A DNA stretch of 23,574 nucleotides, taken from the IMG/VR virus record IMGVR_UViG_648276708_000003; one strand, 5' to 3'. Numbering within the stretch: position 1 is the stretch's first letter; each line of letters begins with the position of its first letter. This document shows, in pieces, positions 4,302-11,325 of this stretch. Position numbers and translations under genes: made by a program. The stretch comes from a virus. The notes under the pieces are model-generated. The model did not search any database. It was not told where the DNA came from and saw only the letters and a list, made by a program, of their open reading frames with translations.

Positions 4302-4319
4302 TCTAAAATATTATTTAGA
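4302..4319. promoter_or_regulatory. Inverted repeat TCTAAA-N6-TTTAGA in the AT-rich promoter region of the rdgC operon (candidate operator)
   Basis: Sequence tctaaa atatta tttaga in a very AT-rich 64-bp intergenic gap. Confidence 0.35.
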
Positions 4320-4352: not shown

Positions 4353-5261
4353 ATGAAATCACCCTTCTTTAAAAACGTCATGGCCTACAGCCTGAACCGG
4401 GATATTCCGCTCGATGCGGATCAGCTGGAGCAGCAATTGCAGGCGATGACGTTTTCCCCCTGTGCTGCGCAGGACATGGCTAAATCAGGCTGGATCAATG
4501 TCACGTCAGACGGCCTTCTGCTGGCCGAGAACGGTCAGTACCTGCTGTGCTGCCAGCATGAAACCAAGATTATGCCAGTGGCAACGCTCAACGATTACGT
4601 CGCCGAGAAAGTGGAGACAATTGAGCGTGAACAGGCGCGTAAGGTGCGCCGCAGTGAAAGAGTCAGCCTGAGAGACGAGGCGCTGTGTGTGCTTCTGCCG
4701 CGTGCTTTCTCACGTCGCTCTGAGTCCTACATCTGGATCGATAGCGTGAACAGCCGTATCTACGTTGACGCGGCCAGCGCTAAATCTGCTGAAGATATGC
4801 TGGCGCTGCTGCGCAAAACTATCGGCTCCCTGCCGGTTATTCCGATGATGACTGCTGATCCCATTGAGCTGACGCTGACTGAATGGCTGCGCGACGCAGA
4901 ACTGCCCGCCGGTTTTGCGCTGGGCGATGAGGCCGAACTGGCGGCAATACTTGAAGACGGCGGCAAAATCCGCTGCAAAAAACAGGACTTACTGAGCGAC
5001 GAGGTGCGCACGCATATCGAGGCCGGAAAACTGGTCACGCAGCTTAGCCTGGACTGGCAGGAGCGCATTTTCTGCCGCGTCTCCGATGACCTGAGCATTA
5101 AGGGCATTAAGTACGCTGACATGCTCACCCAGCAGAATGATGATATCGACCGCGAGGATCAGCGCGCGCGCATGCTGGCCGATTTCATGCTTTTTACGTC
5201 CGAGTTTTCCGGCTTCTTTTCCGCGCTGGTGGATGCGCTGGGCGGCGAGGCAAAGCGATGA
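4353..5261 (+). CDS. rdgC: Recombination-associated protein RdgC (P1 hrdC-like)
   Basis: 302 aa with RdgC hallmarks FFKN..Y, F.PC...D....GW, LLPRAFSR, LLRKTIGSLPV.P, HIEAGKLVT.L.L.W and ADF.L...E...LGGE. Confidence 0.95.
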   Translation: MKSPFFKNVMAYSLNRDIPLDADQLEQQLQAMTFSPCAAQDMAKSGWINVTSDGLLLAENGQYLLCCQHETKIMPVATLNDYVAEKVETIEREQARKVRRSERVSLRDEALCVLLPRAFSRRSESYIWIDSVNSRIYVDAASAKSAEDMLALLRKTIGSLPVIPMMTADPIELTLTEWLRDAELPAGFALGDEAELAAILEDGGKIRCKKQDLLSDEVRTHIEAGKLVTQLSLDWQERIFCRVSDDLSIKGIKYADMLTQQNDDIDREDQRARMLADFMLFTSEFSGFFSALVDALGGEAKR

Positions 5262-6085
5262 CTGCTGACGCTGTGGCGCATTATCACGGCACACCGATTT
5301 GGGGCTGTGCTGGTGAGATCCATCAATTGGCTGTAGCTGGTGCTGGAGCGTTTGTCTCATTCGCACGGATGGACCAGCTGAAGGCCAGTTTTGAGCATGC
5401 TGACTCAATCAGCTTTGATAACGGCGCGTTTTCGGCATGGAAAAGTGGCCTGAATATCCAGTGGAATACGTTTTATCGCCGTGTAGAAACATTCTACGCC
5501 AATCCCAAGCTGAAGTTTTTCGTTATTCCTGACGTGATTGAAGGTGGTGAGGCGGATAACGATCAGCTGATTGCTGAAATGCCGCCGCATCTGCGCGATA
5601 AAGCGGTTCCAGTCTGGCACCTGCATGAAAGCATAGAACGGCTGGTGGAGCTCTGTAACGAGTGGCCTCGCGTCTGTTTCGGATCCTCCGGGCAGTACGC
5701 TGTAATCCGCACAAAGCTATGGCATGCGCGGATGAAAGAAGCGTTTGAGGCAATCTACGTTAAGCGCCAGTTTTCAACCAAGATTCACGGCCTGCGCATG
5801 CTGGATGGGCGCGTGCTGGGTAACTATCCGCTTCATACAGCGGACAGCACCAATCTGGCCTGTAACATTCCTAAGACGCGGGAGAAATACCCTGATATCA
5901 CCACGTCCATCGAGACGGCTGACTACTGTCGTGGCCTATCTGAGCAGGATACTAAGCGCCTGGTACTGATAGGCCGTTGTTCCATTCTCAAAGCAGCGAT
6001 TGAAAAGGTTACTCCGCCGTCTATCGACGAGTGGATCAACACCCATTTTTCCAGCGAATACACAGAAGCCGAGGCATTTGCATGA
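5258..6085 (+). CDS. TGT/DpdA-like TIM-barrel protein (putative base-exchange transglycosylase)
   Basis: Ordered motifs FDNGAFSAW, PDVI.G, PVWH, CFGSSG, KIHGLRM and TADSTN parallel the TGT-superfamily DSG(G/A)F ... H.(L/F)G ... (S/F)xDS core. ATGA overlaps on both ends. Confidence 0.6.
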   Translation: MTADAVAHYHGTPIWGCAGEIHQLAVAGAGAFVSFARMDQLKASFEHADSISFDNGAFSAWKSGLNIQWNTFYRRVETFYANPKLKFFVIPDVIEGGEADNDQLIAEMPPHLRDKAVPVWHLHESIERLVELCNEWPRVCFGSSGQYAVIRTKLWHARMKEAFEAIYVKRQFSTKIHGLRMLDGRVLGNYPLHTADSTNLACNIPKTREKYPDITTSIETADYCRGLSEQDTKRLVLIGRCSILKAAIEKVTPPSIDEWINTHFSSEYTEAEAFA

Positions 6086-8508
6086 TTACTTACGGCTCCG
6101 TTTGCTCCGGCATTGAAGCGGCCAGCGTGGCGTGGGAAGGGCTGGGATGGAAAGCGGCATGGTTCGCGGAGATTGAAAAGTTCCCCGCGGCCGTGCTGGC
6201 GCACCGCTTTCCGGCTGTCCCTAACCTGGGCGATATGACCACAATTGCCGCTGGCGTCCGCGCTGGCTCTATCCCTGCCCCAGCTGTGATGGTTGGCGGC
6301 ACCCCGTGCCAGGCGTTCTCTATCGCCGGACTCCGTAAAAGCCTCGACGACCCACGCGGTCAACTCACCCTTGCCTATGTAGATTTAGCGAATGCCATTG
6401 ACGAAAAAAGAGTATCAACCGGCGAACAACCAGCCGTCCACCTGTGGGAAAACGTGCCGGGAAGCCTCAGCACCGATGACAACGCCTTTGGATACTTCCT
6501 TGCCGGAATGGCTGGCGAAGATGAAGCGTTTGAACCAGGCCCAAGACCTGAGCACGGGAAAAACGGCCCCGGCTGGCGATGGAAAAAAAGCGACGGCAAG
6601 CATGTGGCGAAGTGGCCAAAGTCTGGTTGTGTTATTGGACGACAGCGCAAACTCGCCTGGCGACTGCTCGATGCCCAATACTTCGGAGTGGCCCAACGCC
6701 GCCGCCGTGTGTTCGTTGTCGCAAGTGCTCGAAACGACGTTGATCCCGCAGAAATACTTCTTGAGTTCGACGGCGTGCGCCGGGATTCTCCGCCGCGCAG
6801 AGAAACGGGGCAGGCAGTTGCCCCACTTACTGCTAACGGCTCTGGAGTCGGTGGCCCGGACTTCTCCCACGCTGCAGCCGGTCACTTAATTTCTGCGTTT
6901 GGCGGCGGCAACTGCTCAGGATCGCTTAGCGTGGCCGCGTGCCTGACGGCCAAAGGCCAGCGAAACGATTTTGACGTCGAGACATTTGCCGTGCAAAGCG
7001 CCACGGGCGAGGTTAGCCACACTTTGACGGCAGAAGGTCACGACGCCTCCGAAGATGGCACCGGGCGAGGCACGCCGACCGTTGCTTATGGCTTCCAGAC
7101 ACGCATAGCGCGTAACGGCCGCGGCGACATGGCGGACGTTTGCCACGCGCTTAGCGCTGAATCCGGGGAAACGGGCAAAGGTGACGCTGCACCGTGTGTT
7201 GCCAGGTGTGTTGAGCATGCTGCTTTTGCTGAAAATACCCGTGGGGAGATCCGGTTGTTCAATGGCGACGGGCAGATCACCGGCGCGCTGTCAGCTGGTG
7301 GCGGGAAACCCGGCCAGGGATACCCCTCTGTCGTCAGCCAGTGCGAAGTCCGGCGCCTGACGCCTAAAGAATGTGAGCGCCTGCAGGGCTTCCCTGACGG
7401 CTGGACCCTGATCCCGGAAAAGAAGCGCAACGTTCTTGCCGCTGATGAACTGGCCTATCTCCGCCTGATGCACCCCGACATGCCGGAGGAAGAGGCGCAC
7501 CGGCTGGCGGCTGATGGTCCTCGCTACAAAGCGATCGGGAACTCCATGCCCGTGCCGGTTATGCGCTGGATTGGGGATCGGATTGCTAATCAGATCATGC
7601 TGGTGGCGGGTGAAATCGAGCCTCAGCCAGCAGCCCTCCCCGCTTCGCCAGCGGCAAAGAAAAAGCGTGCGCCGGCGCGCAGGATTGCGGACGACAAATA
7701 CCCCCGCTCATTCCTGAAGTGGGCGGGTGGCAAACACTCTGTACTGGATGAAATCAGGGCGATGCTTTCTACCGGCGATCGTCTCATTGAGCCATTCGTC
7801 GGCAGCGGCACGGTCTTTATCAACGCAGGCTTTAAGCGCAACCTGTTGGGCGATGTTAACCCGGATCTGATTAACCTCTTCAACCAGCTGCAGGGCAATC
7901 CTGATGCCGTAATTAAGGCGGCTTACCAGCTGGAGCGAGGCTGTCTGTCTAATGAGGCGTATCTCGCTATCCGTGATGAGTTCAACGGGCGCAAGGCTCA
8001 CGCTGTACGCCACGCAGCGCTTTTCCTGGCGCTAATGCGAACCAGCTTTAACGGGCTATGCCGGTATAACCAGAAAGGCCTGTTTAATGTGGGCTGGAAT
8101 AAGAAGGGTGAGGCGAATTACTTCCCTATGGATGAACTGACGCACTTCACCGGCATGCAGAAAGAAATGACGTTCATGTGTGCCGGGTTTGAGGATGTGA
8201 TCGCGCAGGCGGGTCAAGGAGACGTGATTTTCTGTGACCCCCCGTATGAGCCTCTGCCGGACGAAGCCGGGTTTACAGCATACAGTGGCACCTCATTCAC
8301 CTTTGCGGATCAGGTGCGGCTGGTGGAGTGTCTGGTGGCGGCGCGGGACCGTGGCGCAAAGGTGGTAATCACAAACAGCAGCGCTCCTGCCATTCTGTAC
8401 CTGTATATCAACAATGGCTTCAGAATCACCCCGCTGGCCACACGCCGATCCGTATCCTGCAAAAGTGAAACGCGCAAAACGGTCAACGATATAATTGCCG
8501 CTCTCTGA
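6082..8508 (+). CDS. dmt: Bifunctional DNA methyltransferase: N-terminal C5-cytosine MTase fused to C-terminal Dam-family N6-adenine MTase (P1 Dmt-like)
   Basis: C5 motifs SVCSGIEA, GGTPCQAFS, WENVPG, QRRRRVF, RRLTP.ECERLQGFPD and YKAIGNS. Dam motifs LKWAGGK, EPFVGSG, FNGLCRYN and DPPY. Start moved to the ATG at 6082 (GAGG RBS, ATGA overlap), giving 808 aa. Confidence 0.93.
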   Translation: MITYGSVCSGIEAASVAWEGLGWKAAWFAEIEKFPAAVLAHRFPAVPNLGDMTTIAAGVRAGSIPAPAVMVGGTPCQAFSIAGLRKSLDDPRGQLTLAYVDLANAIDEKRVSTGEQPAVHLWENVPGSLSTDDNAFGYFLAGMAGEDEAFEPGPRPEHGKNGPGWRWKKSDGKHVAKWPKSGCVIGRQRKLAWRLLDAQYFGVAQRRRRVFVVASARNDVDPAEILLEFDGVRRDSPPRRETGQAVAPLTANGSGVGGPDFSHAAAGHLISAFGGGNCSGSLSVAACLTAKGQRNDFDVETFAVQSATGEVSHTLTAEGHDASEDGTGRGTPTVAYGFQTRIARNGRGDMADVCHALSAESGETGKGDAAPCVARCVEHAAFAENTRGEIRLFNGDGQITGALSAGGGKPGQGYPSVVSQCEVRRLTPKECERLQGFPDGWTLIPEKKRNVLAADELAYLRLMHPDMPEEEAHRLAADGPRYKAIGNSMPVPVMRWIGDRIANQIMLVAGEIEPQPAALPASPAAKKKRAPARRIADDKYPRSFLKWAGGKHSVLDEIRAMLSTGDRLIEPFVGSGTVFINAGFKRNLLGDVNPDLINLFNQLQGNPDAVIKAAYQLERGCLSNEAYLAIRDEFNGRKAHAVRHAALFLALMRTSFNGLCRYNQKGLFNVGWNKKGEANYFPMDELTHFTGMQKEMTFMCAGFEDVIAQAGQGDVIFCDPPYEPLPDEAGFTAYSGTSFTFADQVRLVECLVAARDRGAKVVITNSSAPAILYLYINNGFRITPLATRRSVSCKSETRKTVNDIIAAL
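6392..6889 (+). CDS. Overlapping +1-frame ORF inside the C5-MTase domain, resembling the alternative-frame beta polypeptide of M.EcoHK31I
   Basis: 165-codon open frame containing NTSEWPN...CSLSQVLET...KYFLS...GILRRAEKRGRQLP. Start codon is uncertain. Confidence 0.5.
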   Translation: MPLTKKEYQPANNQPSTCGKTCREASAPMTTPLDTSLPEWLAKMKRLNQAQDLSTGKTAPAGDGKKATASMWRSGQSLVVLLDDSANSPGDCSMPNTSEWPNAAAVCSLSQVLETTLIPQKYFLSSTACAGILRRAEKRGRQLPHLLLTALESVARTSPTLQPVT

Positions 8509-8516
8509 AACGAACG

Positions 8517-8542
8517 AAACCCGCTTTATGCGGGTTTTTTTT
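8517..8542 (+). terminator. Rho-independent terminator after dmt
   Basis: AAACCCGC-tttat-GCGGGTTT followed by a T run. Confidence 0.88.
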
Positions 8543-8629
8543 CTTTACTGGACTATCAGCAATGTACGTATTTTTGATGCCAACTTTTAATAGAGCACCA
8601 CTGATGACCAATGGAACGGTCTGCTACTG

Positions 8630-8657
8630 TTTACAGTCAGTAATCAGCGAGTATTAT
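8630..8657 (+). promoter_or_regulatory. Sigma70-like promoter for the DUF4225-like gene
   Basis: -35 TTTACA (8630-8635), 16-bp spacer, -10 TATTAT (8652-8657), upstream of a GGAG RBS. Confidence 0.5.
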
Positions 8658-8685
8658 TGATGATGTAATGTACAGGGAGATAAAA

Positions 8686-9498
8686 ATGGACGCAGCCTTG
8701 CTTGAAATGATGGGCTCAGGTGGAAGGAATAAAGCCTGGGCTGAAACAATGGTCAATCTTGAAGCCAGAAAGCTGATTAATATAGCTAACAGGCTGTCAG
8801 CCTTACATCTTAACGATGGGCTTACCCGGATGCAGTTTGTCCAGGAAATAAAATCGGTTGTTGATAAGCAGTTTGCCGCCGCCCGACAAGCAAAATCTGA
8901 TAAAGAATGTCTGGAATGCGTTAAACAGCTTAGATCTGAAACAGAAAACCTTGAAGAGCAAGGAAGATTACTGCTCACAAAGGCAGCACAACTCTATGCC
9001 AAAGTGGAGTTTGTTCGCGAAAACAACAAAATTGTGGGTTACATGATTTCCGCTGTTCATGTCGCGCTTTCAGGTTTTGCTGTTGTTGGCGGTGCTTTGA
9101 TGATCGCGTCAATGACACCTCTTGGCGTACTGGCTGGTGCCGTTCTCGTTGTTGACGGGCTTAATGGCCTGTCCAAAGAACTTATTACCAACCTGTCTGA
9201 CGTACAAACAGAAGGCATGTTTGCCGATGGTGCAATGCAGGCTGCAAAATTCATGGGATTTAAACCAGAGTCAGGACTGGCTTTCTACAATACGGTAACG
9301 CTCACGGCCAGTGTTTATAGCGTTTGGGGGCTAGCGAGAAAGCCTGGCGCATGGCGGCTTTTCAGATGGATGCCCCGTGATTACTTCCGTAAGATCGACA
9401 CCATGAGCCGTCCAAAGCTGACCATGAAAATAATCGGCTGGGGTGTTTCGGCTAAGGTGACATTCGATTTACTCAGCATAAGTAACCAATCAAGCTAA
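8686..9498 (+). CDS. DUF4225-like protein, putative membrane-disrupting toxin
   Basis: Helical N-terminal half, then a Gly-rich hydrophobic hairpin (VVGGALMIASMTPLGVLAGAVLVVDGLN), GM..DG...A.FMGF and a C-terminal RLFRW...D(Y/F).R. Family recognised from memory. Start at the ATG at 8686 by GGAG RBS, giving 270 aa. Confidence 0.72.
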   Translation: MDAALLEMMGSGGRNKAWAETMVNLEARKLINIANRLSALHLNDGLTRMQFVQEIKSVVDKQFAAARQAKSDKECLECVKQLRSETENLEEQGRLLLTKAAQLYAKVEFVRENNKIVGYMISAVHVALSGFAVVGGALMIASMTPLGVLAGAVLVVDGLNGLSKELITNLSDVQTEGMFADGAMQAAKFMGFKPESGLAFYNTVTLTASVYSVWGLARKPGAWRLFRWMPRDYFRKIDTMSRPKLTMKIIGWGVSAKVTFDLLSISNQSS

Positions 9499-9810
9499 GC
9501 CTTTTTTCGACCGCCAGTAGCGCCATGATTTCCAGGCCAGCACTGGCGGTTGAATAAACGTCACAATGACTACACCGAGCAGCAGAGATAAGCCTCCACC
9601 TAAAATGTATGGCTTAGTCGAGAAACAGAGAAGAAATACAAATACTAGTGTGCAGGATGAAACGATCCATAACAGGACTCTAAATCTGTTTTTTAAATCC
9701 ACTACTGCTTCGTCCAGCGTTCCACCATAGCTTTCAATGTTATTTTTAATTTTTTTCAAATCAGCATCAGTAAAACCGGACTTCAATAACTCTGATTCAT
9801 TAACTGTCAT
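9490..9810 (-). CDS. Small two-TM membrane protein, putative immunity protein
   Basis: 106 aa with a soluble N-terminus and two hydrophobic helices ending in a W/K/R-rich tail. Convergent with the toxin-like gene and overlapping it by 9 bp. Confidence 0.65.
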   Translation of the reverse strand: MTVNESELLKSGFTDADLKKIKNNIESYGGTLDEAVVDLKNRFRVLLWIVSSCTLVFVFLLCFSTKPYILGGGLSLLLGVVIVTFIQPPVLAWKSWRYWRSKKGLA

Positions 9811-9947
9811 GGTGCTATACCTTTCATCCTTAAAACGTTAAGTCATTCTAACGCAATTATATACGTGCATGACTCCCATACATCAACTTCCTTTGGCACT
9901 ATAATGGACTTCCGAACCATGTAAATGTGTCAAGAAACCGCCAAATC

Positions 9948-10355
9948 TTAGGTTAGCTTCATCCCGGTATCCCAGTAGGCTGGTAGTGATTCTGCCGGGA
10001 TGCCGCGAGGCGTATTCAGCAGCAACAGCGCCTGATCCATCGTGATACGGTTACAGGCATATTCACGGAAAATATAGCCGATAAGGCCTGCCGCCTTCGC
10101 TTCTCTGGCCCTGATATTGTAGGCGGTCTGACACTCAGCACTGAGGCGGCTGGTCTCTTTGAAATAGTATTCCCGCGCTCTCGCATAATCGTCTGTGCAG
10201 GCCACCAGCACGTTTTCTGTGATCACTTCATAGCGGCCCTGGCAATCTTCGCCGCAGTCCAGCAGCCGCACGCCGGTTCTTTCTGACGATGCCAGTACGG
10301 TTTTCTGAATAGGCAGGCCAGTATCGGGGATCATTCGTCCGTAAACGTCATTCAT
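9948..10355 (-). CDS. Hypothetical protein
   Basis: 135 aa ORF with an AAGGAA RBS, filling the gap. No family recognised. Confidence 0.7.
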   Translation of the reverse strand: MNDVYGRMIPDTGLPIQKTVLASSERTGVRLLDCGEDCQGRYEVITENVLVACTDDYARAREYYFKETSRLSAECQTAYNIRAREAKAAGLIGYIFREYACNRITMDQALLLLNTPRGIPAESLPAYWDTGMKLT

Positions 10356-10494
10356 TTCGCATTCCTTTTTTCAGTAAATGGTGGCGCAACCTGCCGCAGA
10401 GCCAGACTATACGGGAAAAGTGTCGAAAACTTAAAGTGATTTTTATGAAAAATTTATACTTTAAATTCTTTTTTCAGCTATGGCCGCTCATCAC

Positions 10495-10519
10495 CCCAAA
10501 ATTACAAACCCCCTATTCT
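10495..10519 (+). promoter_or_regulatory. Candidate phage late promoter (copy 1)
   Basis: AAATTACAAACC-ccc-TATTCT. Same core and spacing as the sequence upstream of the capsid gene. Confidence 0.5.
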
Positions 10520-10549
10520 CCCCGCTCCATTTACCACAACGGATGAATT

Positions 10550-11128
10550 ATGAGTAACCGTAAAGCCTCGCACTTTGAGCTTTTCCATAACCTGAATATG
10601 GCAATGCGCGAAGATCCGCAGTTTTCCTATGAATATGACTATTCACGAGAAACGCGGACGCTGATGGAAACGCCCTACTGGCGTCTCACCCCGTCACAGC
10701 GCACCACGCGCAACACGATGATTGAGCAGACGATGGCAAACGCCACGGCGGAAGATACCCGCGTGCGCATGATGGCCATGCGTCCGGAGCATCGCTATCT
10801 GCTGATCCCAAATTACATCTGCTTGGCGACAACTGAGTTCTACATGGAGGTTCAAGGCTCACTGTCTGATGAGCCGGAGACCGCCGATCTGATGCCGGTC
10901 ATGTGGTCCGCGATCTACGCGCTCAACCTGGGGCGCGGTATGTCTACTGACGTCTGGAGCGAAATGTCACCTGCAGACCAGCTGGCGCAGACCAAATGGG
11001 TTCAGAAGGTACTGAGTACCGTCAAGCTGTCGCGCTACATCACCGATGCAAGTCGCGCTGTCTGGCTGGGCCTGTTCGTGACCTTCAACGATATCCCGGA
11101 TGATTTCTACGAGCTGATGGAGTCGTAA
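10550..11128 (+). CDS. Hypothetical phage protein
   Basis: 192 aa with phage-like codon usage, GGA RBS and TAATG coupling to the next ORF. Confidence 0.75.
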   Translation: MSNRKASHFELFHNLNMAMREDPQFSYEYDYSRETRTLMETPYWRLTPSQRTTRNTMIEQTMANATAEDTRVRMMAMRPEHRYLLIPNYICLATTEFYMEVQGSLSDEPETADLMPVMWSAIYALNLGRGMSTDVWSEMSPADQLAQTKWVQKVLSTVKLSRYITDASRAVWLGLFVTFNDIPDDFYELMES

Positions 11129-11325
11129 TGATCGCGGCCGAAAAGCCGATCCGCAAAGGTTCTCGCGTGCGTCTGCGTGGGAATCTGTTTGAGGGGGCGA
11201 TATGCGTGGTTGACCGGGTGGACTGGCTGGAGGATGGACAGCGCTATGTGCTGAAGCATCCCCATTACACCTGCCCGCTTAACTACCGTCGCTGGGATCT
11301 GGAGCTGATACCTGATGACCAGTAA
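11128..11325 (+). CDS. Small hypothetical protein, possibly SH3/KOW-like beta barrel
   Basis: 65 aa with IRKGSRVRL...G..CVV..V pattern. TAATG overlap. Confidence 0.6.
   Translation: MIAAEKPIRKGSRVRLRGNLFEGAICVVDRVDWLEDGQRYVLKHPHYTCPLNYRRWDLELIPDDQ

Follow-up and report, generated by a model that had tools for sequence, protein, structure and literature searches.

Among phage enzymes, DpdA1 of phage CAjan and of Enterobacteria phage 9g are validated DNA transglycosylases for 7-cyano-7-deazaguanine (preQ0). Hutinet et al. 2019 (PMC6884629) report that knockout of CAjan dpdA abolishes 2′-deoxy-preQ0 (dPreQ0) in the phage DNA and that about 30% of G is modified in CAjan. This phage encodes its own FolE, QueD, QueE and QueC together with a transporter. 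The same study describes a group 3 of 76 phages with DpdA and without preQ0 genes, which forms a separate gamma-proteobacterial cluster and includes Salmonella phage 7-11; the DNA of 7-11 was found to contain dADG, the deoxynucleoside of 7-amido-7-deazaguanine, at 50 per 10^6 nucleotides (~0.02% of G). In the DNA of Pantoea phage MED16, dADG was detected at 354 per 10^6 nucleotides (~0.13% of G), and most restriction enzymes still cut (PMC8306585). In bacteria, the DpdA of the Dpd system (Salmonella Montevideo, 7ui4) has 413 residues with a large Zn-containing insertion and needs the DpdB ATPase, while DpdC forms the amide and dADG is the end product in vivo (PMC10164549).

Here, a 23,574-nucleotide stretch of viral DNA (IMG/VR record IMGVR_UViG_648276708_000003; at its full length, the window) was analyzed, for which a reading of the sequence alone, the original prediction, had proposed a DNA-modification operon with a gene resembling DpdA and tRNA-guanine transglycosylase (TGT) wedged between rdgC and a Dcm-Dam fusion. 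This middle gene, dpdA (5258..6085, + strand), encodes a 275-aa protein that clearly belongs to the phage DpdA family. In our assessment it is probably a stand-alone phage DpdA, that is, a compact TIM-barrel enzyme of the TGT superfamily which would swap guanine in DNA for a 7-deazaguanine base made by the host. The family, the missing pathway genes and the trace-level products have already been published; new are (i) the P1-like phage-plasmid that hosts the gene; (ii) the exact insertion between hrdC and dmt; (iii) the long retention and recent clean loss; and (iv) the repeated coupling to methylase genes. Apart from this context, the finding is the correct annotation of a known family, the large DpdA-only subfamily, which is still labelled 'hypothetical' in public records.

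Assignment of the 275-aa protein to the phage DpdA family

The 275-aa protein was matched by PHROG 887 ('queuine tRNA-ribosyltransferase') at 2e-89, and the validated CAjan DpdA was found to match the same PHROG at 8e-96. When a profile of 55 relatives (alignment A1) was compared with CAjan DpdA by hhalign, the two aligned over 173 columns with a probability of 98.8% (E 5.6e-17). In this alignment D54 is paired with the Asp of LDSGAFS, H121 with the His of 'CFHF', G142 with the GG motif, H177 with a His, and D196 with the Asp of CDSS. The DpdA1 enzymes of CAjan and 9g share with the protein a homologous barrel and aligned DxGAFS, H, GG/GS, H and D-S motifs, but the identity to the CAjan enzyme is only ~17%, and CAjan has DSG where DNG is found here. 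Searches with Pfam, NCBIfam, PADLOC and phmmer against PDB chains returned no match for the 275-aa protein, and a profile hmmsearch against PDB gave GCN4 coiled-coil noise only. The family profile was not significantly similar by hhalign to a single bacterial TGT or to a TGT alignment from 30 genomes (probabilities of 2.4% and 0.3%, respectively); the connection with TGT proper therefore depends on structure, on the intermediate CAjan DpdA and on the HHpred result published for MED16.

Residue conservation was scored in the alignment of 55 relatives. D54, A57, D92, H121, H177, P191, D196 and S197 were found to be invariant in all 55, and N55, G142, L179 and R180 were conserved in at least 90%. 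The two Asp residues expected of a catalytic pair, D54 (in the DxG motif after strand 3) and D196 (strand 8), are among the invariant positions and align to Asp residues of CAjan, consistent with predicted roles as acid/base and nucleophile, respectively. H121 corresponds to the conserved histidine of DpdA/DpdA1, which according to Hutinet et al. 2019 (PMC6884629) marks DpdA/DpdA1 and is absent from DpdA2. All motifs that the original prediction had listed lie where it placed them, namely D54 (FDNGAFS), D92, PVWH with H121, GSSG, H177 (IHGLRM) and D196 (TADSTN). The protein has no CxC or CxxC motif, no Cys is conserved among the relatives, and the chain terminates in a helical tail at residue 275. 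The missing Zn site and C-terminal parts exclude TGT proper and bacterial DpdA. They do not exclude phage DpdA, as the validated CAjan DpdA does no better in these tests: it too has neither a Pfam match nor a CxCxxC motif, and for a phage DpdA it is therefore normal that Pfam finds nothing and that the Zn site is missing. The absence of a CxCxxC Zn domain noted in the original prediction was confirmed, but it does not set the protein apart.

The structure predicted by AlphaFold2 (AF2) is a barrel of eight beta/alpha units (mean predicted local distance difference test score, pLDDT, 92.3; predicted template modeling score, pTM, 0.88). In the model the C-termini of the strands, or the positions just past them, hold all conserved polar residues, and the invariant ones thereby fall on the catalytic face of a predicted TIM barrel. 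An exhaustive structural search (VIA), in which 48,161 solved chains were compared, ranked the archaeosine TGT (arcTGT; 1iq8) first with a Z-score of 15.8, followed by Cap10 (9ntn, Z 14.6), bacterial TGT (3unt, Z 14.3) and the DNA preQ0 insertase DpdA (7ui4, Z 14.2, 230 residues aligned). These four top chains all belong to the TGT superfamily, with 230-247 residues aligned at a root mean square deviation of 3.9-5.1. By Foldseek against PDB, TGT barrels and those of TrpA or MTHFR could not be told apart (all E ~1e-4), and among predicted viral structures the neighbors were phage 'queuine tRNA-ribosyltransferases', including the DpdA2 of phage nt-1. The modeled fold supports the DpdA assignment and would be insufficient alone. 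Overall, the proposed TGT-superfamily, DpdA-type identity of the middle gene is upheld by PHROG 887, the CAjan alignment, the barrel model and the structural matches, and the predicted model shows the barrel named in the original prediction.

The gene belongs to a DpdA-only phage subfamily that has already been described, as group 3 in Hutinet et al. 2019 (PMC6884629) and as the 'DpdA/TGT_1' cluster of MED16 (PMC8306585). By tblastn, identities were 66% to Salmonella phages SW9 and SEN1, 57% to gp38 of Pantoea phage MED16, 41% to HK106 and 38% to Salmonella phage 7-11. MED16 gp38, SW9 gp39 and SEN1 gp38 align over >90% of the length, match PHROG 887 and come from phages without preQ0 genes; MED16 furthermore infects Pantoea agglomerans and has a Dam methylase nearby. 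The setting differs, in that these phages are a lytic siphovirus (MED16) and two phages of ~30 kb (SW9 and SEN1), whereas the gene in the window belongs to a P1-like phage-plasmid and is coupled between hrdC and dmt. Similar to the group 3 phages described by Hutinet et al., the phage is a gamma-proteobacterial one with a singleton DpdA and would depend on host preQ0. No mention of P1-like phage-plasmids in connection with DpdA-only phages was found in the passages of that paper (PMC6884629) that were consulted, and in a full-text literature search 'phage-plasmid' and 'DpdA' co-occurred in one paper only, where each appears once. The subfamily comprises 560 clusters at 50% identity, with at least 574 confirmed IMG/VR contigs identified through the pattern [LIF]DN[GS]A[FY][ST]xW. 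The signature residue N55 is found in 53 of the 55 relatives, and the DNG and HGLRM variants are subfamily-specific, as had been suggested; the subfamily they mark is the published one (Hutinet group 3, MED16 cluster) rather than a new one.

Two further observations concern relatives outside this lineage. In a different phage-plasmid, the 91.6-kb E. coli plasmid NZ_CP069886.1, the early region was found to carry a shorter relative of DpdA, with 46% identity across residues 8-204, among ead/Ea22-like and DUF968 genes; a lone DpdA is thus present in more than one type of phage-plasmid. Predicted fusion proteins were also identified, joining a truncated Dam to DpdA (P0121), DpdA to a phage GPD baseplate domain (P0125), and QueD to DpdA (P0212). 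The Dam-DpdA and DpdA-GPD fusions may be products of deletion or assembly in P2-like prophages, and the QueD-DpdA fusion looks like a genuine pathway fusion.

Retention, loss and genomic context of dpdA

The hrdC and dmt genes of P1 overlap by 4 nucleotides with nothing between them, and those of D6 are likewise adjacent, which agrees with the statement in the original prediction that no such gene intervenes in P1. The window shares with these phages the gene order, a HrdC homologue (51% identical to P1 HrdC), a Dmt of the Dcm-Dam fusion type and, with P1, the coupling by a 4-nucleotide overlap, but has dpdA between the two genes. Three PLSDB Pantoea plasmids also have hrdC and dmt adjacent without dpdA. 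Besides the window, the three-gene form was found in two further Pantoea plasmids (with an identical record that is labelled Acinetobacter), in the complete record of a relative virus (G002, 92.5 kb), and in a more distant contig of the P1-like type, which encodes a DpdA of 79% identity. Nucleotide identities of rdgC and dpdA to the window were 92.9 and 92.1%, 80.9 and 82.2%, and 72.8 and 74.4%, respectively, and dpdA thus diverges in step with its flanks across the P1-like copies. Among five diverged P1-like copies, the ratio of nonsynonymous to synonymous substitution rates (dN/dS) was 0.04-0.05, with synonymous divergence up to saturation and with the reading frame, the start/stop coupling and all key residues kept. 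The gene is under strong purifying selection in several P1-like plasmids and is therefore an old, selected resident of the plasmid lineage, not a recent passenger.

The opposite state is seen in a plasmid of the nearest Pantoea genome (G001), in which the flanks on either side match the window at 97.5-99.8% identity and dpdA is missing exactly from ATGA to ATGA. The left junction of the dpdA cassette (5245..5270, + strand) consists of CGAGGCA, with the Shine-Dalgarno sequence GAGG, followed after 5 nucleotides by ATGA; the right junction (6069..6094, + strand) repeats CGAGGCA, 5 nucleotides and ATGA, and is identical to the left one at 17 of 25 positions. The cassette is flanked, in other words, by an imperfect direct repeat, and at each junction CGAGGCA is the Shine-Dalgarno sequence of the downstream gene. 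In plasmids without dpdA, the left-junction sequence leads directly into dmt. The cassette would be lost or gained with the coupling intact either by a small deletion between the junction repeats or by an allele exchange via the flanks. Defence glycosylases have been reported to destroy 7-deazaguanine-modified phage DNA and to select for dpdA loss (bioRxiv 10.1101/2025.10.29.685425), and we conjecture that a cost imposed by such enzymes would explain the presence/absence polymorphism. The locus offers a natural experiment, in that plasmids near-identical in their flanks differ by exactly dpdA and other copies are kept under strong purifying selection; comparing the DNA of such plasmids could reveal the product of a lone DpdA, its motif, its benefit against restriction and its cost against modification-dependent defences. 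As a side observation, the plasmid records CP009882.1 (Pantoea sp. PSNIH1) and CP060164.1 (labelled Acinetobacter venetianus) matched the 4.2-kb query over its full length with the same statistics (81.9% nucleotide and 88.2% protein identity), which suggests contamination or mislabelling of a Pantoea-type P1-like plasmid under the Acinetobacter name.

Precursor supply was surveyed in the window and in G002, which carries a DpdA 97% identical to that of the window, with G001 as stand-in for the host. No preQ0 pathway gene was found in the window, and across all 92.5 kb of G002 there was no match to FolE, QueD, QueC, QueF, radical-SAM, Pfam TGT or YhhQ/Vut. The host-like G001 genome was found to encode FolE, QueD, QueC, QueF, TGT and YhhQ. 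The notion that the phage draws its precursor from the host pathway was accordingly judged sound. The subfamily is tied to the 7-deazaguanine pathway independently by the QueD-DpdA fusion and by one related locus in which QueC and QueE adjoin.

In the survey of homologue neighborhoods that the original prediction had proposed, relatives were found to adjoin Dam or Dcm genes in other phage backbones. Of the 80 best IMG/VR loci, 19 have a Dam gene directly upstream of dpdA; the order is P2-like (dam-dpdA-gpA), with a 4-nucleotide overlap in one of them (L052). These loci are interrelated and count as one or few events. In another locus (L097) a Dcm-like gene is directly upstream of dpdA, in a further contig a D12 methylase is two genes downstream, and one relative is predicted to be a Dam-DpdA fusion protein, which may be a deletion product. 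Methylase adjacency is thus seen in three unrelated phage backbones (P2-like dam-dpdA-gpA, Dcm upstream in L097, and dpdA-dmt in the window). This repeated association argues for DNA, and not tRNA or protein, as the substrate, and it is a lead on why trace-level marks persist.

Proposed reaction and alternative explanations

From these observations we infer a reaction together with its DNA substrate, product, timing and any protective effect. With TGT and the bacterial and phage DpdAs as models (PMC10164549), D196 would attack C1′ of the target deoxyguanosine in double-stranded DNA, so that guanine is expelled and a covalent enzyme-DNA intermediate is formed. D54 would serve as the general acid/base as a 7-deazaguanine base resolves the intermediate, with H121 and D92 (or D/E95) putatively reading the base edge. 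The inserted base would be either preQ0, supplied by the FolE-QueD-QueE-QueC pathway of the host, or the amide form of preQ0 (ADG). An Asp/Asp double displacement in a TGT-type barrel is likewise proposed for bacterial DpdA, whereas the Zn-containing insertion, DpdB and DpdC of that system are not present here. As dpdA would be co-transcribed and translationally coupled with rdgC/hrdC and the Dcm-Dam methylase, one operon may lay 5-methylcytosine (m5C), N6-methyladenine (m6A) and a sparse, probably sequence-specific 7-deazaguanine mark on the phage-plasmid DNA. Extrapolating from the two relatives whose DNA was analyzed, the expected product would be dADG at ~0.02-0.1% of guanines, or tens of sites per 90-kb genome. 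Such a density would resemble that of an orphan modification enzyme and not bulk base replacement, and, with MED16 DNA still cut by most restriction enzymes, protection from restriction is no more than putative for the DNG subfamily. A broader proposal, which we offer as speculative and rather doubtful, is that the DpdA of the Pantoea P1-like lineage is an orphan, site-specific third modification enzyme, co-translated with Dcm-Dam so that m5C, m6A and 7-deazaguanine are written together, that the marks interplay through overlapping targets or joint defence evasion, as the coupling of relatives to Dam or Dcm genes in other backbones would suggest, and that the ATGA-to-ATGA polymorphism reflects a live arms race driven by anti-7-deazaguanine defences.

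Several points weigh against base exchange in DNA by a stand-alone DpdA. Both Pfam TGT (PF01702) and the bacterial TGT profile fail to detect the protein, and in the structural search unrelated barrels (class II aldolases) begin at Z 13.7, a narrow margin from the 15.8-14.2 of the TGT-superfamily chains. The invariant D92 aligns to a Ser of CAjan, and the CAjan Asp falls on position 95 (E here; D/E in 41 of 55 relatives); in terms of sequence, the base-recognizing Asp equivalent to D156 of TGT and D130 of bacterial DpdA is not securely assigned to D92. The dADG values of 7-11 and MED16 are trace-level correlations, and to our knowledge neither a knockout nor a reconstitution has been reported for any member of the DNG subfamily. 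Moreover, dADG needs a nitrile-to-amide step, for which we know of no phage enzyme. The host genome examined is a stand-in for the window's own host. Any benefit of dpdA is conditional, because a near-identical plasmid does without it and because hrdC and dmt are non-essential in P1 (PMC10695390).

Some of these same observations feed other explanations. We consider it unlikely that the protein is a DNA enzyme with another outcome, one that excises guanine, removes 7-deazaguanine or mimics the host Dpd mark, in the last case mainly to pass Dpd-type systems and not classical restriction enzymes. Such an enzyme would account for a number of features, however. The bacterial Dpd system leaves the same dADG (PMC10164549) that was detected in 7-11 and MED16, and sites this sparse are reminiscent of a restriction-modification mark. 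DNG and HGLRM are variants specific to the subfamily, dpdA comes and goes between near-identical plasmids as expected for an arms-race gene, and defence glycosylases have been documented that act against 7-deazaguanine DNA and select for the loss of dpdA (bioRxiv 10.1101/2025.10.29.685425). It is countered by the fact that all tested DpdAs insert bases and do not just remove them (PMC10516641), and no DpdC-like amide-forming enzyme was identified. An active transglycosylase on RNA (host or phage-relevant tRNA), retuning translation in lytic growth like a minimal TGT, would fit with the presence of tRNA enzymes among the best structural matches (arcTGT, bacterial TGT) and with DNA modification in relatives so low that DNA might be off-target. 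We regard it as improbable, given that the protein has neither the Zn subdomain nor the C-terminal tRNA-binding parts of TGTs, its closest sequence relatives of known activity are DNA enzymes, its homologues are repeatedly adjacent to DNA methylase and replication genes, and the host-like genome has its own TGT.

The rank of Cap10, a TGT-like protein of type IV CBASS, in the structural search raises the further explanation of a protein of Cap10-like TGT fold whose role would be to bind or process a 7-deazaguanine-modified protein with no exchange of nucleic-acid bases. Cap10 gave the best Foldseek TM-score (0.57) in addition to its Z-score, and it is a compact TGT-fold protein too (PMC11996544). 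Its partners are missing, however, as no QueC-like Cap9 (PF06508) was found in G002, neither cap9 nor a nucleotidyltransferase (CD-NTase) partner was seen among the open reading frames and annotations around dpdA, where the neighbors are rdgC and dmt, and the PADLOC models had no match; with the sequence-profile similarity favoring DpdA and the catalytic Asp pair invariant, this explanation is very improbable. Least credible, in our judgment, is a decaying or functionless passenger gene. The gene is dispensable in nature, being absent from G001-type plasmids, the three PLSDB Pantoea plasmids, P1 and D6, but decay is contradicted by the low dN/dS, the intact frame, and the coupling and invariant residues kept in five diverged copies. 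Base exchange in DNA by a stand-alone DpdA remains the reading we favor.

Operon layout, regulatory elements and flanking regions

The window represents the late/structural region of a P1-like myovirus, with genes for tail, tail-sheath and baseplate proteins and for a Sit-like transglycosylase; its backbone group consists of non-mobilizable Pantoea phage-plasmids of ~90 kb. The first gene of the operon (4353..5261, + strand) encodes a 302-aa RdgC/HrdC homologue (Pfam RdgC, 3e-101; PHROG 724, 5e-113). The third, dmt (6082..8508, + strand), encodes a homologue of P1 Dmt of 808 aa from its ATG, a Dcm-Dam fusion DNA methyltransferase (PF00145, 6e-34; PF02086, 2e-48; PHROG 116, 6e-199). Its translation reads as an N-terminal C5-cytosine half with PCQ and ENV motifs and a C-terminal D12 N6-adenine half with DPPY. 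The rdgC-dpdA and dpdA-dmt junctions are both ATGA, such that the stop of each gene overlaps the start of the next. A terminator scan identified an intrinsic terminator at 8516..8538 (+ strand), a GC-rich hairpin with a 9-bp stem followed by a T run, which is the sole strong + strand terminator 3′ of dmt. The layout of three ATGA-overlapped genes closed by one terminator is therefore exactly as had been claimed, in the gene coordinates, both junctions and the hairpin.

Upstream of the operon, an inverted repeat (TCTAAA-6 nt-TTTAGA) was found at 4302..4319 (+ strand) in an AT-rich spacer, 34 nucleotides 5′ of the rdgC start, with one match in the window versus none in 100 shuffles. This repeat is a possible operator, promoter element or regulator-binding site of the hrdC-dpdA-dmt operon. 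A sigma-70 scan found no good promoter at this spacer, and the repeat could not be taken as a repeated late-promoter element since it occurs a single time within the window.

Just past the dmt terminator, positions 8600-11200 form a variable island of low GC content (45-49%). A DUF4225 gene and small open reading frames occupy it in the window and in some relatives, a P-loop NTPase gene is found there in another relative, and a PAAR-domain gene follows the island in relatives (compare L001 10193-13305 and L002 6510-9273). The island looks like an accessory/defence-gene hotspot of these phage-plasmids. A further accessory gene on the backbone was observed in a relative plasmid (NZ_CP134736.1; L001 1-148), where a 'lipid II-degrading bacteriocin' gene adjoins the maturation-control gene.

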